From Promethearchaeota archaeon (GTDB lineage Archaea; Asgardarchaeota; Lokiarchaeia; Sigyniarchaeales; SOKP01), in contig JBHLNF010000026.1 of the NCBI GenBank assembly GCA_048937405.1, forward strand, positions 1-15,388: a stretch of DNA of 15,388 nt. Direction: 5' to 3'. Positions 3,477 through 8,073 of this stretch are shown here, piece after piece. A model generated the notes under the pieces. It was not told where the DNA came from. It made no database searches and worked only from the letters and a program-made list of their open reading frames with translations. The position numbers and the translations under genes are program-made. Within the stretch, counting starts at the first letter, position 1. Each line of letters starts with the position of its first letter.

Positions 3477-3902
3477 TTATTTTTCTTTAATTTCTACTCT
3501 AGCTCCACAAGCAGTGCATTTTAAATATAATTTCCTGCCTTCTCTTTGAATTTGAGTGTCTGGTTTATTACAAATGCTACATAAAACATAGGTTTTGGTA
3601 TAATTTTCGATTAATCGATTTAGAACCTGATCTTTATATTGTCCTTTTAAAAACAATTGTTGACCACGAATTTCTCCCATTGTACCAGCTTTTTTCAGGA
3701 AGATTCCAAGAAAATGCTTCCTATCTCTATTAAGAGTACTAATTATTTTGTTAAAATTTGTGATAAATGTGTTCCTGCTTTCAATCCGAAGTTCTACTTT
3801 TGGAATTTCAAATCTTGATAATTTTCGAACATTCTCTGGAATCTTTTCATATGCTTTATCTAATAATTCATCGTAATTATTTAAATCCATAATTTTATTC
3901 AC
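3477..3902 (-). CDS. eif2b: Translation initiation factor aIF-2 beta subunit
   Basis: YDELLDKAYEKIP, RFEIP, TFITNF, LNRD and the zinc ribbon YVLCSICNKPDT...LKCTACGA. Confidence 0.95.
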   Translation of the reverse strand: MNKIMDLNNYDELLDKAYEKIPENVRKLSRFEIPKVELRIESRNTFITNFNKIISTLNRDRKHFLGIFLKKAGTMGEIRGQQLFLKGQYKDQVLNRLIENYTKTYVLCSICNKPDTQIQREGRKLYLKCTACGARVEIKEK

Positions 3903-3988
3903 TAACTACTTGTACTATAAGGATATAACTAAGCATAAGAAAAATAGTTTTCCTTTATTATCAAATAATTTTAAAATACTTGTTAAAA

Positions 3989-4723
3989 CTAAAAGGCTTC
4001 AAAATTATCATTATCAGATTCATAAATACGCGATTCTAGGATCAAATCTTTAATGATACTTCTTAATTTACCCTCGGGAATTTCAATTTCTTGTTTCAAG
4101 GTTTCAAAATTTATTCCCTCGCCTTTAGTAGAATATTCTTCTACTAATAGAAATACCTCTTCCTTTAAAATTTCATGTTTAGAACCTTCTCCATCCTTTT
4201 CAAATAGAGTATTAATATCTATTTCATCTGAGAAATCCTCTTTTTTATTATCTAATTGAAGAATATCTGGAATTTCTTGAATATCACCAGATTTTATCTT
4301 ATGAATAATTTCAGCATTCCTAAGTAAAATAAGATTTGGTTCATTAACCTTTTTCATTATATCTATCCATAAGGAGATATACTCTCCATACTTACTTATC
4401 CGTCCTATAACTTCTACAATATCACCTTTATTAAAAACATTAAATTTTTCAGGATTTATATTCCTTATTATAGCTCTAATCACACCAGTACTATCATCTA
4501 AGTCAAAATCAAGTCTAATATTTGAATGTAGGTCTTCCTCTAATCCCATATCCATATCAATTGCTTCTATTATCTGTTCTTTCTTATTTATAATAGTCCC
4601 AATAATTCGAACACGTTTTACCTGTCCAAATATAGTATAAAAAAATTTTTCGCTTTCATTATATTGCCCTTCTATAATATGTTTAATCCAGCATTGAATA
4701 GTGGGATTTCTCTTAAAACTCAT
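3989..4723 (-). CDS. RPA32/RPA2-like ssDNA-binding subunit (OB fold, acidic linker, C-terminal winged helix)
   Basis: OB-fold motifs VKRVRIIGTI, LDDSTGVIRA, GDIVEVIGR and EPNLILLR. Winged-helix-like tail GINFETL...IIKDLILESRIYE. Start placed at ATG 4723 (MSFKRNP) instead of the TTG at 4783, which reads through a poly-A tract. Confidence 0.82.
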   Translation of the reverse strand: MSFKRNPTIQCWIKHIIEGQYNESEKFFYTIFGQVKRVRIIGTIINKKEQIIEAIDMDMGLEEDLHSNIRLDFDLDDSTGVIRAIIRNINPEKFNVFNKGDIVEVIGRISKYGEYISLWIDIMKKVNEPNLILLRNAEIIHKIKSGDIQEIPDILQLDNKKEDFSDEIDINTLFEKDGEGSKHEILKEEVFLLVEEYSTKGEGINFETLKQEIEIPEGKLRSIIKDLILESRIYESDNDNFEAF

Positions 4724-4876
4724 GATATATTCTAACTCATAGCTTATTCTTATTTTAATATTATTAAATTTTTTTTTTTTCAATATAGAAATACCTATTA
4801 AGCTAATAATATCTAAGAGATTCCTCTCTTATAATGTTTGTAGGAATAAATTTTTTACTTAAAAGGAAAATTGAAT

Positions 4877-4881
4877 AAAAA
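4877..4881 (-). terminator. Candidate oligo-T terminator of the tRNA gene
   Basis: Minus strand reads CTA-TTTTT immediately after discriminator A73, followed by further T-rich tracts. Confidence 0.4.
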
Positions 4882-4898
4882 TAGTAGCGGGGGTTCGA

Positions 4899-4933
4899 TT
4901 TTCAGTCTGTTGGAAACCAACAAATTAGTTACC
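4899..4933 (-). other. tRNA intron 3 (35 nt, T-loop, position 59/60)
   Basis: GGTAACTAATTTGTTGGTTTCCAACAGACTGAAAA. Strict BHB: T-stem GUUCG/CGAAC, central UUCA/UGAA, bulges AA^G and AA^U, outer GU/AC plus the TGTTGG/CCAACA hairpin. Confidence 0.9.
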
Positions 4934-4946
4934 TTTGAACGAACGA

Positions 4947-4977
4947 ATCTGCCGATCCATCGGTTGTGAAGGATCGT
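4947..4977 (-). other. tRNA intron 2 (31 nt, variable loop, position 46/47)
   Basis: ACGATCCTTCACAACCGATGGATCGGCAGAT. Helix CGATCC/GGATCG, central CUGA/GCAG (3 of 4 pairs), bulges GA^A and AU^U. Removal restores AGAUC. Confidence 0.82.
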
Positions 4978-4986
4978 TCTCAGGGT

Positions 4987-5011
4987 CTCTCTATGGTGTT
5001 TACATGCCATT
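4987..5011 (-). other. tRNA intron 1 (25 nt, canonical position 37/38)
   Basis: AATGGCATGTAAACACCATAGAGAG. BHB-like: outer helix ATGG/CCAT, central CUCA/AGAG with one A-A mismatch, 3-nt bulges UA^A and AG^A, closed by the anticodon stem. Confidence 0.9.
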
Positions 5012-5093
5012 TATGAGCCCTGCGGCATAAACCAGGCTAGCCCACCCCGCTATATAAGCACGTATGAGCTTAAATCCTATGCATTATATCTAA

Positions 5094-5116
5094 TTATATA
5101 TATAACATTATATAAA
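5094..5116 (-). promoter_or_regulatory. Candidate TATA boxes for the tRNA gene
   Basis: TTATATATATAA (5094-5105) and TTTATATAA (5108-5116 on the minus strand) lie 43-65 nt upstream of the mature tRNA 5' end. Confidence 0.45.
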
Positions 5117-5248
5117 CTAACAATTTAATCTTTTTCGATTTTTAATAAGATTAGTCCTTTTAGTAACAAATTTTTCGATTCATAAACAATAACTTTAACT
5201 TCTAATTTAAATTAGATATCAAAAAAGGAATTACTTTGATAGAGTTTC

Positions 5249-7063
5249 ATGTCTTTGTTTAATGTGTTTTTAGATTTCATTTTGAATCCATGGTTTATTT
5301 TATCTTTATTATTTTGGGTTTTTGTTTTAATTTTAGTTCGTTTGTTGAGAAATAGAAAAGAAGCATATTTTCTCTGGTTTCCATTACTAGCAATGTTTAA
5401 AACAAGAAGGTTAAATAAATTTATAATGAAAATTTCCAGAAAAGCTCCAAAATTTTGGAAAATCTTTTGGACGATTGGTATATTTGTGTCATTTAGCTTT
5501 ACTATCTATGCTCTTTTTTTCTTTTTTACAAATTTTATTAATTTGCTAATTAGACCTAGTATTGAACAAGCTATAGTTCCTCTTATTCCCGGAGTAACAA
5601 TTGATTTACCTCTTCTTTTTTATTTAATACTTCCATTGTTGTTTATTATAACAACACATGAATTAGCTCACGGAATTTCAGCTGGTGCTGATGGAGTAGA
5701 TGTTAAATCTACTGGAGTTCTCGGGGTGGGTCTTTTTTTTCTTATAGGTTTTGGAGCATTTGTTGAAGTTGATGAAAGAGAACTAAGTTCTCATAAATTT
5801 CATAGAAATACAAGATTAAGAATCGCCGCTTCTGGTACTTATGTAAATGGTATAACAGCAGGAATTGCTTTTATCCTATTATTATGTTTTCCTCTGATCA
5901 TCTCTCCCTTTTATAGGCAAGTTACTCAAGTATATAGTGTTCTAACAGAAGAAGAGGGAGGAATCAATGAAGATAATTTAACTCATGGTGATGTTATTTT
6001 AGCTATTAAAGAGAAAGGAACGGAAGATAACGAATATGTGTCTCTTAACAATGATGAGGGAAAAAGCCTTACAGATATTTTAAATAACAGAACCAGTTTA
6101 AAGTGTTCTATAGGAGATAACTTAACATTCAGAATTTATAATCCTTCTACAGATAGCTATTCAGAAAAAAATGTAACATTAGGACCTCGATACTATTTAG
6201 GGATCCTCTATGAATATATCTCAAATACTACACTACGAATTACTAGAATCTACTCAGAAAGTGAAGGAGGAAATAATTATAATAAAAATCTGGAAGTAGG
6301 ATTAAATATTATAGAAATCAACGGAGTTCCAATTAATCTTTCCACTGGAGATACTTTAGGGAAAGCATTAACAATATTTAATTTGAATACTATTAATTTT
6401 AGTACAGAAACTGAAACATTCATTTTAGATATAAACACGACAGGAGTAAAAATTGGAATATACAGCAACCCGTATTATATGCACAAAAACGAAGTAGCTA
6501 AATTTTTTACTAGTTTTTGGCCAGAATTTTGGTTAAGAGAAATTGCATGGCTTTTTATTATTGCTTTCAGTATTACTCTTTTTAACATGCTTCCTTTGCC
6601 TGTGTTCGATGGTGATAGAATCATAAAAGAATTGCTTAATTGGGGTTTTGGAGAAGAATATAAAATAACTAAAAAAAAAAAAGAGAAAATGAGATTCAAA
6701 AAAGATGATAATGAACTTAATTTATCTGAATACAGGGTAGAAAAAGTTGAATATGTCAAAATCCTCATAGAAAATAAAAATAGCATAAGAGAGCAAAGTG
6801 AAATTATTTTATCGGATAATAATTATACTTTAATTGATAAAATTGGAGATGGATATAAAGATACAGTTACTTTAAATCTCCCTGAGCAAACAAAATTAGA
6901 GGAAGGTTCAATAATAGAGATTGGTTATGAATATTGGTATGATGAAAAACGAAAAATTAAGAATTCAATCATAAATATTCTACGCTACTTTACATTATTC
7001 ATTATAGCAGGAAATTTCATTTTATCTTTTATAAAGTTCGGTGGAATTTTGTTTTGGATATAA
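5249..7063 (+). CDS. Site-2 protease (peptidase M50) with two PDZ-like repeats
   Basis: HELAH (HExxH), GAFVEVD, RLRIAASG, NMLPLPVFDG (NxxPxxxxDG) and several TM helices. Two similar segments, VYSVLTEEEGG..LTHGDVILAI and ITRIYSESEGG..LEVGLNIIEING. Confidence 0.93.
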   Translation: MSLFNVFLDFILNPWFILSLLFWVFVLILVRLLRNRKEAYFLWFPLLAMFKTRRLNKFIMKISRKAPKFWKIFWTIGIFVSFSFTIYALFFFFTNFINLLIRPSIEQAIVPLIPGVTIDLPLLFYLILPLLFIITTHELAHGISAGADGVDVKSTGVLGVGLFFLIGFGAFVEVDERELSSHKFHRNTRLRIAASGTYVNGITAGIAFILLLCFPLIISPFYRQVTQVYSVLTEEEGGINEDNLTHGDVILAIKEKGTEDNEYVSLNNDEGKSLTDILNNRTSLKCSIGDNLTFRIYNPSTDSYSEKNVTLGPRYYLGILYEYISNTTLRITRIYSESEGGNNYNKNLEVGLNIIEINGVPINLSTGDTLGKALTIFNLNTINFSTETETFILDINTTGVKIGIYSNPYYMHKNEVAKFFTSFWPEFWLREIAWLFIIAFSITLFNMLPLPVFDGDRIIKELLNWGFGEEYKITKKKKEKMRFKKDDNELNLSEYRVEKVEYVKILIENKNSIREQSEIILSDNNYTLIDKIGDGYKDTVTLNLPEQTKLEEGSIIEIGYEYWYDEKRKIKNSIINILRYFTLFIIAGNFILSFIKFGGILFWI

Positions 7064-7095
7064 AATTTAAGTAATAATTTTTATAAAAGACTTTA

Positions 7096-8073
7096 ATGAG
7101 TAATTATAAAATATTCCTAGATACAGGAACATGTTCATATTGTAATAACATTGGAATAATCAAGAGAAAATATTCAGGTGAAAAACTATGTCCAGAATGT
7201 TTTCAAAAAAATATTGAAAAAAACATCTATAAGACTATTTCCAAGTATAAAATGCTAAAAACTAATGATAATATTATTGTTGCTCTCTCTGGAGGGAAAG
7301 ATTCAATTACCTTACTCTATAATTTAAAAATCATACAAAATCGAACATATAACTCTAAACCAATAATAGCTTTAATTATAGATGAGGGAATAAAAAATTA
7401 TCGAGAAAATAGTATTAAAAAAGCCAAAAATTTCTGCTCAAAATATAATATTGAATATAAAGTCAGTTCATTTAAAGATAAAATAGGAAAAACATTAGAC
7501 GAGATAATTGAATTAAAAAAGGATTCTTCAGATTATAAATATGCATGCAATTATTGTGCTACTATAAGAAGAAGACTATTAAATGATGGTGCAAAAGAAT
7601 TAAATGGAACTGTTTTAGCAATGGGACATAATCTCACTGATTTCGCTGAAACTTATCTAATGAATATCCTCTATAAACGTTTGGATATAATAGCAAATCA
7701 ATATTTTTTTAAGGAAGAGAATAATAAAATAGACCAATTTTATATAAAAAAAATCTCACCGTTAATAAGAATCCCTGAAGAAGAAATTTTTTTATATGCA
7801 AATATAAAACAATTAGATTATTATCCTTCTCACTGTCCTTATAGAGAAAAAGATCCAATTATCAGAAAAAGAGTTTTGGATTTCATTCAAGACTGTAGAG
7901 AATATAGTCCAGAATTAGAATTCAACCTATTTAATGGTTTTTTAGAATTATCTAAAACATTATATTATCATAGAGAAAAAAAGAATTACAATTTATGTCA
8001 AAAATGTGGTTATCCTTGTGGAAATGGAAACATTTGTACTTATTGTAGTTATTTTCAAGAATTTTCTCACTAA
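7096..8073 (+). CDS. tRNA 2-thiolation protein, Ncs6/CTU1/TtuA family (TIGR00269-like)
   Basis: PP-loop SGGKDS, DEGI..YR, CNYCATIRRRLL, GHNLTD, CPY, and N- and C-terminal CxxC zinc fingers. Confidence 0.93.
   Translation: MSNYKIFLDTGTCSYCNNIGIIKRKYSGEKLCPECFQKNIEKNIYKTISKYKMLKTNDNIIVALSGGKDSITLLYNLKIIQNRTYNSKPIIALIIDEGIKNYRENSIKKAKNFCSKYNIEYKVSSFKDKIGKTLDEIIELKKDSSDYKYACNYCATIRRRLLNDGAKELNGTVLAMGHNLTDFAETYLMNILYKRLDIIANQYFFKEENNKIDQFYIKKISPLIRIPEEEIFLYANIKQLDYYPSHCPYREKDPIIRKRVLDFIQDCREYSPELEFNLFNGFLELSKTLYYHREKKNYNLCQKCGYPCGNGNICTYCSYFQEFSH

Follow-up and report, generated by a model that had tools for sequence, protein, structure and literature searches.

The DNA analysed here (the window) is the 15,388-nt stretch at positions 1-15,388 of contig JBHLNF010000026.1 (assembly GCA_048937405.1, Promethearchaeota archaeon), and window coordinates are used below unless a contig is named. 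The study genome is a metagenome-assembled genome (MAG) of 29 contigs and 4.47 Mb, rated 100% complete with 5.7% contamination. The window contains an initiator tRNA-Met(CAU) gene of 167 nt on the minus strand, with A1 at 5051 and the discriminator A73 at 4885, in which four exons are separated by three introns (Table 1). The introns account for 91 of the 167 nt (54%). An earlier note on this DNA had placed the gene at exactly these coordinates, leaving the strand unsaid, and its intron sum (25+31+35 nt) and internal exon lengths (9 and 13 nt) were reproduced on re-splicing. Three additional D-loop bases bring exon 1 to 40 nt, and canonical position 37 is therefore raw base 40. The gene does not encode CCA: A73 is followed by CUA (4882-4884, minus strand), and CCA must therefore be added post-transcriptionally. 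The same CUA is found in the related genomes L078, L097 and L056, and many relatives encode CCA directly after A73 (ccatttt...).

Table 1. Features of the window and of other multi-intron tRNA loci in the study genome
Feature	Position	Strand	Basis
Initiator tRNA-Met(CAU) gene, four exons and three introns	4885..5051	-	Spliced product, orthologs, motif finder
Exon 1, 40 nt: acceptor 5' strand, D-arm, anticodon stem 5' strand, C32-A37 including the CAU anticodon	5012..5051	-	
Intron 1, 25 nt, canonical 37/38 (anticodon loop)	4987..5011	-	
Exon 2, 9 nt: A38, anticodon stem 3' strand C39-G43, A44-A46	4978..4986	-	
Intron 2, 31 nt, canonical 46/47 (variable loop, A44 G45 A46 / U47 C48)	4947..4977	-	
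Exon 3, 13 nt: U47, C48, T-stem 5' strand G49-G53, U54-A59	4934..4946	-	
Intron 3, 35 nt, canonical 59/60 (T-loop)	4899..4933	-	
Exon 4, 14 nt: U60, T-stem 3' strand, acceptor 3' strand, discriminator A73	4885..4898	-	
Run of five T, 4 nt past the discriminator, likely transcription stop	4877..4881	-	Sequence; T-rich trailers in orthologs
AT-rich block TTTATATAATG...ATATATATAA, about -40 to -65, candidate TATA/BRE promoter	5091..5116	-	Conserved among close relatives (upstream comparison)
OB-fold gene (PF01336) and aIF2-beta gene (PF01873), co-oriented with the initiator gene, which lies 102 nt upstream	3477-4783	-	
Divergent M50 peptidase gene, TtuA-like tRNA thiolase gene beyond	5249-8073	+	
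23S rRNA, 5' 854 positions (archaeal), running off the contig end	14456-15388	+	
Multi-intron tRNA locus	C25:48566-48772	+	Finder
Multi-intron tRNA locus	C25:130759-130921	+	Finder
Multi-intron tRNA locus	C7:512903-513070	+	Finder
Multi-intron tRNA locus, Leu-CAA	C29	-	Finder
Other multi-intron tRNA loci			Finder

About 100 related loci share the order of the tRNA, OB-fold, aIF2-beta and M50 peptidase genes. Adjoining the initiator locus is thus the gene for the beta subunit of aIF2, the factor by which initiator tRNA is carried. From their sequences we infer that the T-run after the gene is the likely terminator and that the AT-rich upstream block is a candidate promoter, which would imply a short 5' leader. 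Within the window, 16S rRNA is absent upstream of the 23S rRNA, so the rRNA genes may be unlinked.

Joining the four exons yields a 76-nt RNA that ARAGORN classifies as a full-length tRNA-Met(cat). After splicing, the anticodon loop is CUCAUAA (7 nt), with a CAU anticodon and U33. The acceptor stem is topped by A1:U72 (A at 5051 paired with U at 4886), an established mark of archaeal and eukaryotic initiators, and the anticodon stem (CAGGG / CCCUG) contains the three pairs G29-G31:C39-C41. The identical 76-mer is present as uninterrupted genomic DNA in the congener L020, where it scores 59.3 bits (E 1.3e-12) with Rfam model RF00005, for which the threshold is 29. The initiator identity that the earlier note had assigned to the spliced product is thus borne out by the ARAGORN call, by A1:U72 and by the three G:C pairs, and the covariance score, proposed there as a check, supports it.

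The exon-intron junctions could be read directly from orthologs: 40 related genomes were searched at the DNA level, and the predicted 76-mer was then aligned to the matches with splicing allowed. The gene of L020 has no introns and agrees with the predicted spliced product at 76 of 76 bases, which fixes every junction, including AGAUC and not AGAUUC at the second. Congeners that carry intron 1 only, intron 2 only (L016), intron 3 only (L021), or the pairs 1+2, 2+3 and 1+3 show the same junctions with unchanged exons. Intron 1 is missing at the exact 37/38 junction in L003, L016, L020 and L021, intron 2 at the 46/47 junction in most orthologs, and intron 3 at the 59/60 junction in L002, L004-L009 and others. 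The number and positions of the introns read earlier from the window agree with the orthologs and with the motif finder described below. The earlier preference for a 31-nt over a 30-nt excision at intron 2 was also correct, as all intron-less and intron-2-less orthologs match AGAUC, and sliding of junctions 1 and 3, also noted there, leaves the product unaltered. When cuts are placed after the second bulge base on both sides, as had been suggested, all three predicted junctions give the sequence of the intron-less orthologs.

None of the standard searches recognized the gene. ARAGORN, with and without its intron mode, called no gene in the window or at the locus, and Rfam at the gathering threshold returned no tRNA from the whole window, with 23S rRNA as the only match. 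Relaxing Rfam to E<=10 on positions 4780-5160 gave no tRNA and two chance matches (TtnuCD17 and IRES_APC) downstream of the gene, and a search of the whole genome with RF00005 at E<=1 did not list the contig of the initiator gene. The prediction that standard pipelines would probably miss the locus therefore holds for ARAGORN and Rfam, and annotation based on either would make the study genome seem to be without an initiator tRNA. No second initiator was found elsewhere in the 4.47-Mb, 29-contig assembly. Genome-wide searches for A1:U72-type acceptor arms within 400 nt and for anticodon arms of the form GGG...CAU...CCC, whether or not a canonical intron interrupts them, each had the initiator locus as their sole match. 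Two other GGGCTCAT sites, on C18 and C28, were considered as a second initiator and rejected, since they lie in coding-looking sequence and tRNA features are absent.

The three introns differ in how closely they approach the bulge-helix-bulge (BHB) motif, for which the central helix (H) was taken as the four bases located two bases upstream of each cut, with 3-nt bulges cut after the second base. Intron 3 has the T-stem as outer helix, a perfect central helix (U54-A57:UGAA, that is UUCA:UGAA, 4/4 pairs), bulges AA/G and AA/U60 (the slash marks the cut), and a weak 2-bp inner helix (GU:AC) followed by a conserved hairpin, GUUGG-UUU-CCAAC. It has the strict BHB form, two 3-nt bulges on opposite strands with a 4-bp helix between them, which is paired in 33 of 33 variants. 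Intron 1 uses the anticodon stem as outer helix; its central helix consists of C32-C34:GAG plus an A35.A mismatch, its bulges are UA/A and AG/A, and its inner helix is AUGG:CCAU. Intron 2 lacks an outer helix and has a central helix of C41 U42 G43:CAG plus an A44.G mismatch, bulges GA/A and AU/U47, and a 6-bp inner helix (CGAUCC:GGAUCG). Introns 1 and 2 depart from the strict geometry, with 3 bp and a purine-purine mismatch at the fourth pair in both and no outer helix in intron 2. Only intron 3 is thus strictly BHB; intron 1 is a BHB apart from a single mismatch, and intron 2 is a relaxed HBh' motif. Introns 1 and 2 fit the relaxed hBHBh' and HBh' classes cut by alpha-beta enzymes (PMC5829648, PMC4090602). 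The earlier description of BHB geometry at each insert is accurate for intron 3; introns 1 and 2 are relaxed, and intron 2 is an HBh' and not a full BHB.

Covariation was counted over nonredundant orthologous introns: 61 for site 1, 18 for site 2 and 33 for site 3. In-register pairing reached 76%, 89% and 76% at the three sites, compared with 21-56% when the partner was slid by 1-3 bases. The first three pairs of the intron 2 central helix are invariant (18/18 each), all four pairs of the intron 3 central helix are paired in 33/33 with changes from U:A to U:G only, and the inner helices carry compensatory substitutions with 2-6 standard pair types per pair. At each site the covariation is evidence for a bulge-helix-bulge fold, which takes the strict form at 59/60 and a relaxed one at 37/38 and 46/47. 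The inner hairpin of intron 3 (YUGR-NNU-UCCA-R) is kept in every one of the 33 site-3 introns, the 5' third of which is free to vary; it may serve as a BHB stabilizer.

Predicted folding energies differ among the motifs as well. The intron 3 motif is almost free (-55.0 vs -55.4 kcal/mol for the minimum-energy fold), and the BHB register of intron 1 lies 3.9 kcal/mol above the minimum. The central helix of intron 2, which borrows three anticodon-stem bases and competes with the anticodon stem, is absent from the minimum-energy fold; forcing it into the full precursor costs 4.1 kcal/mol, a penalty that falls to 1.4 kcal/mol with introns 1 and 3 removed and that arises because three anticodon-stem pairs must be displaced. 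The invariant CAG inside this otherwise fast-evolving intron argues that the refold matters. It is plausible from the folding model that intron 2 is removed from a refolded conformer, perhaps late, which does not imply a fixed order.

A generic finder was applied to the whole genome. Its anchor is an acceptor stem together with a T-arm, in whose loop an intron is tolerated; candidate BHB elements are then excised, and the result has to pass a cloverleaf check and ARAGORN validation. It recovered the initiator locus unaided with exactly the same three introns, which places the initiator gene far beyond chance. Among its 28 loci, a lower bound since the finder needs a TTC[AG]A T-loop and fairly strict motifs, at least four other tRNAs have three introns: Leu-GAG (207 nt), Val-UAC, Leu-CAA (192 nt) and Asp-GUC. 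The Val-UAC gene contains three 30-nt introns, each scoring 8/8 on the motif, and six tRNA genes need two introns, including His, Pro-GGG, Asn and Leu-CAG. Some solutions are imprecise, namely Asp at 85 nt, Phe with one 60-nt excision, and Ile-UAU with excisions of 54 and 53 nt. The triple-intron state is normal for this genome. Standard tools detect just 21-27 tRNAs in the complete-rated 4.47 Mb, and inferences on completeness and codon usage for such MAGs are consequently biased.

The splicing machinery encoded in the study genome comprises two EndA paralogs and one RtcB. The 197-aa alpha EndA, an ORF on C27 in the region of 74089-74313, has the catalytic alpha subunit of Aeropyrum pernix (3p1z_B) as its best match (E 2.3e-33) and keeps the Tyr-His-Lys triad (...YKDLR...EHS...VRKK). 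Its loop GSPLGINKPR aligns with GQPLDVEKPR of A. pernix, so that K55 and R57 correspond to K44 and R46 of the Crenarchaea-specific (L1) loop, which confers broad substrate specificity according to mutagenesis and loop grafting (PMC3241643). The 200-aa beta-like EndA (C8 ORF, region of 5162-5410) has Ser in place of the catalytic His (KDSA vs KEHS of M. jannaschii) and would fit a structural beta subunit, as expected for a His-less paralog. Together they appear to form an alpha/beta endonuclease pair with the broad-specificity loop, whose substrate range is predicted by homology. The alpha subunit aligns end to end with that of the A. pernix alpha2-beta2 endonuclease (PDB 3P1Z; PMC3241643), including K-P-R. 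An alpha-beta type with the L1 loop has been assigned to Asgard archaea by Kaneta et al. 2018 (PMC5829648).

When species-representative genomes were scanned by pattern for the exon-1 core, 96 stretches matched, and exon 1 is identical in them. Most of their records are titled Promethearchaeota or Promethearchaeia, under which NCBI places the Lokiarchaeia-type Asgard lineage, a few being labeled Hermod-, Hod-, Thor- or Odinarchaeota, and the Asgard origin that had seemed probable from the letters is supported. The intron distribution was counted on the 90 genomes with flanking markers after duplicates were removed. Intron 1 alone is the commonest state (34/90), followed by introns 1+3 (23), 1+2 (9), intron 3 alone (8), introns 2+3 (6), no intron (6) and intron 2 alone (1). 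All three introns are present in only three genomes (3/90), namely the study genome, L078 and L075. Thus, all eight on/off combinations of the three sites occur among 90 related genomes, and the alignment of Asgard orthologs suggested earlier finds each site either occupied or empty. In the congeners G003 and G006, searches with exon 1 and exon 4 gave no match, the locus being unassembled or diverged there.

A quick maximum-likelihood tree of three flanking proteins from the 90 genomes, unrooted and built from linked genes only, places the study genome as sister to L078 in a clade (starred in the tree) that also includes two genomes with intron 1 only and one with introns 2+3; L075 falls in a distant clade. 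The minimum numbers of state changes on the 90 taxa are 14, 13 and 20 for sites 1-3, against shuffled-label means of 19.0, 17.3 and 29.3, and the tree signal at site 2 is no better than the best shuffle; because the tree is unrooted and made of linked genes, these counts do not tell gain from loss. The exons are 76/76 identical to intron-less orthologs, and the introns are about 50% diverged between sister genomes. In two independent sister pairs, L107/L097 and L048/L035, 1-kb flanks are 96.4-97.5% identical and one member has intron 1 only, the other introns 2+3. Such complementary sets in near-identical pairs suggest block loss or allele exchange, not slow single events. L061 and L094 share an identical intron 1 and differ in having intron 3 and intron 2, respectively. 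Site-2 introns are 31 nt long in 17 of 18 variants with an invariant CAGA, and all site-3 variants have in common an inner ...UCCA... hairpin. These likenesses suggest that each site had a single origin and that loss or exchange was frequent afterwards.

From these data the locus is, with little doubt, a single, functional initiator tRNA-Met gene of a Lokiarchaeia-type Asgard archaeon, whose three BHB-type introns would be cut out by the alpha-beta EndA and whose exons would be joined by RtcB. Two other explanations of the locus itself have to be weighed, both highly improbable. One is an assembly chimera, in which alleles of co-occurring strains, such as one with introns 1+2 and one with introns 2+3, were stitched into an artificial three-intron gene. 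Exons are indeed identical across strains, the same sediment runs carry other configurations of the gene, seen as joints and loose ends, and exon 1 collapses to a very high-depth node common to many strains. Exons 2 and 3 (9 and 13 nt), however, are shorter than the assembly word, so that neighboring introns are linked by direct words. One contig of metagenome run X1, which may be the MAG's own source sample, moreover covers 4700-5036 with zero differences and uniform depth and links introns 3, 2 and 1. The runs compared were of DNA contigs, and a look for RNA runs containing the locus gave none. All three introns recur in L075 and in the sister L078, which are species-level genomes of other projects. 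Equally improbable is a decaying copy with junk inserts, the working initiator being encoded on unassembled DNA; this would be compatible with the draft state of the MAG and with the failure of ARAGORN and Rfam to report a tRNA at the locus. Against it stand the identity of all 76 exon bases to intron-less orthologs while the introns have diverged, the splice motifs kept by compensatory change, the conserved synteny, the lack of any other initiator-like arm in the 4.47 Mb, and the many tRNAs of this genome that are built likewise.

Under the favored explanation of a functional gene, the minus strand would be transcribed from the AT-rich promoter region and end at the T-run, producing a precursor of about 170-200 nt. 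A heterotetramer-type alpha-beta EndA would cut six phosphodiester bonds to release the three introns, and RtcB would join the four exons, with end trimming and CCA addition to follow; we infer cleavage, ligation and any splicing order from the motifs and the enzymes encoded. Introns 1 and 3 would present their motifs on a cloverleaf-like fold, with the anticodon stem and the T-stem as outer helices, and intron 2 would have to refold locally so that C41-G43 of the anticodon stem pairs with the conserved CAG close to the 3' end of the intron. The introns would probably be removed from alternative conformers. As the gene is the sole initiator in the assembly, the earlier proposal that initiation depends on three splicing events, here predicted, is upheld. 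All translation initiation would then pass through six cuts and three ligations on one precursor, one of the removals needing a refold that breaks the anticodon stem, and this reliance would make the alpha-beta endonuclease and RtcB a potential bottleneck.

As to history, the three introns are best explained as old homologous insertions of the lineage that would have been lost or exchanged in most relatives, leaving the study genome among the few to keep all. It is less probable, though worth considering, that the three-intron state was instead built up recently in this lineage by new insertions or allele exchange. The weak tree signal at the three sites, and above all at site 2, would agree with a recent build-up, as would two independent cases of genomes that differ at all three sites and have flanks 96-97.5% identical. 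The intron 3 of the study genome is also nearer to that of the neighboring clade than to that of the sister L078, and repeated gains are inferred in other Asgard classes by the 2026 preprint discussed below. The constant length and CAGA of site 2 and the UCCA hairpin of site 3 nevertheless indicate one origin per site, L078 itself has all three introns, and the tree behind the weak signal is unrooted, quickly built and limited to linked genes. A further, only tentative proposal is that the initiator locus of Lokiarchaeia-type archaea is a hot spot of ongoing intron turnover, at which whole sets are swapped or lost in one step. It is based on the two pairs with complementary sets at 96-97.5% identical flanks and on the eight combinations around one invariant 76-nt tRNA. 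Such changes could come about by homologous recombination between lineages through the invariant exons and conserved flanks, or by copy-back of partly spliced tRNA. If true, the locus would provide a natural series for following the gain and loss of archaeal tRNA introns, a question that the 2026 census did not settle.

Multi-intron tRNAs have been described before. The earliest catalogue of them is for Thermoproteales (Sugahara et al. 2007/2008, as given in PMC4090602 and PMC11291895), in which, as far as these citing accounts go, a tRNA gene has up to three BHB/HBh'/hBH introns, as here, and the introns are cut by an alpha2-beta2 endonuclease with the Crenarchaea-specific loop; Thermoproteales belong to a different phylum. 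The earlier statement that three-intron tRNAs are known mainly from that order is out of date. In Atabeyarchaeia and Freyarchaeia, 92-95% of tRNA genes have introns, over half of them several (Valentin-Alvarado et al. 2024; PMC11291895). In a census of 90 Asgard genomes, single tRNA genes contained as many as five intervening sequences, the same positions changed state repeatedly, and T-arm introns had the cleanest motifs (Goswami et al. 2026; bioRxiv 10.64898/2026.10.13.758758). The initiator gene resembles the Asgard tRNAs of both studies in having several short BHB-type introns at non-canonical positions (variable region and T-arm) that are missed by annotation, and it resembles those of the census in the repeated on/off changes at the same positions and in a T-arm intron with the cleanest motif. 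Both studies center on Freyr-, Jordi- and Atabeyarchaeaceae, and the 2026 preprint mentions neither the initiator tRNA nor Lokiarchaeia, whereas the present case is an initiator gene from a Lokiarchaeia-type member of the Promethearchaeota. Also unlike those studies, all eight combinations of three sites are seen here around one invariant 76-nt tRNA. Several introns outside 37/38 and a protein endonuclease are known as well from Cyanidioschyzon merolae and nucleomorphs (PMC3728597; PMC4090602), where the enzyme and context are eukaryotic, and a relation by descent is not implied.

The gene is therefore genuine and very probably a functional three-intron initiator. The earlier judgment that such an initiator is unusual is right among orthologs, where having all three introns is rare (3/90), and does not hold within its own genome, where the state is ordinary and shared by at least four more tRNAs, or for Asgard archaea generally (PMC11291895; 10.64898/2026.10.13.758758), the case being modest against the published record. 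This kind of gene has already been described for Asgard archaea, and the combinatorial, fast-changing intron pattern around an invariant tRNA is the more interesting result. One invariant tRNA with three independently present or absent introns in about 90 genomes, including near-identical pairs with opposite sets, offers a compact test bed for the arrival and departure of BHB introns. In the more distant relatives L031-L034, which belong to other families of the order, the initiator introns are found elsewhere than at the three sites of this genus, in the D-loop at about 15/16-16/17, in the D-stem region and at another T-loop position.
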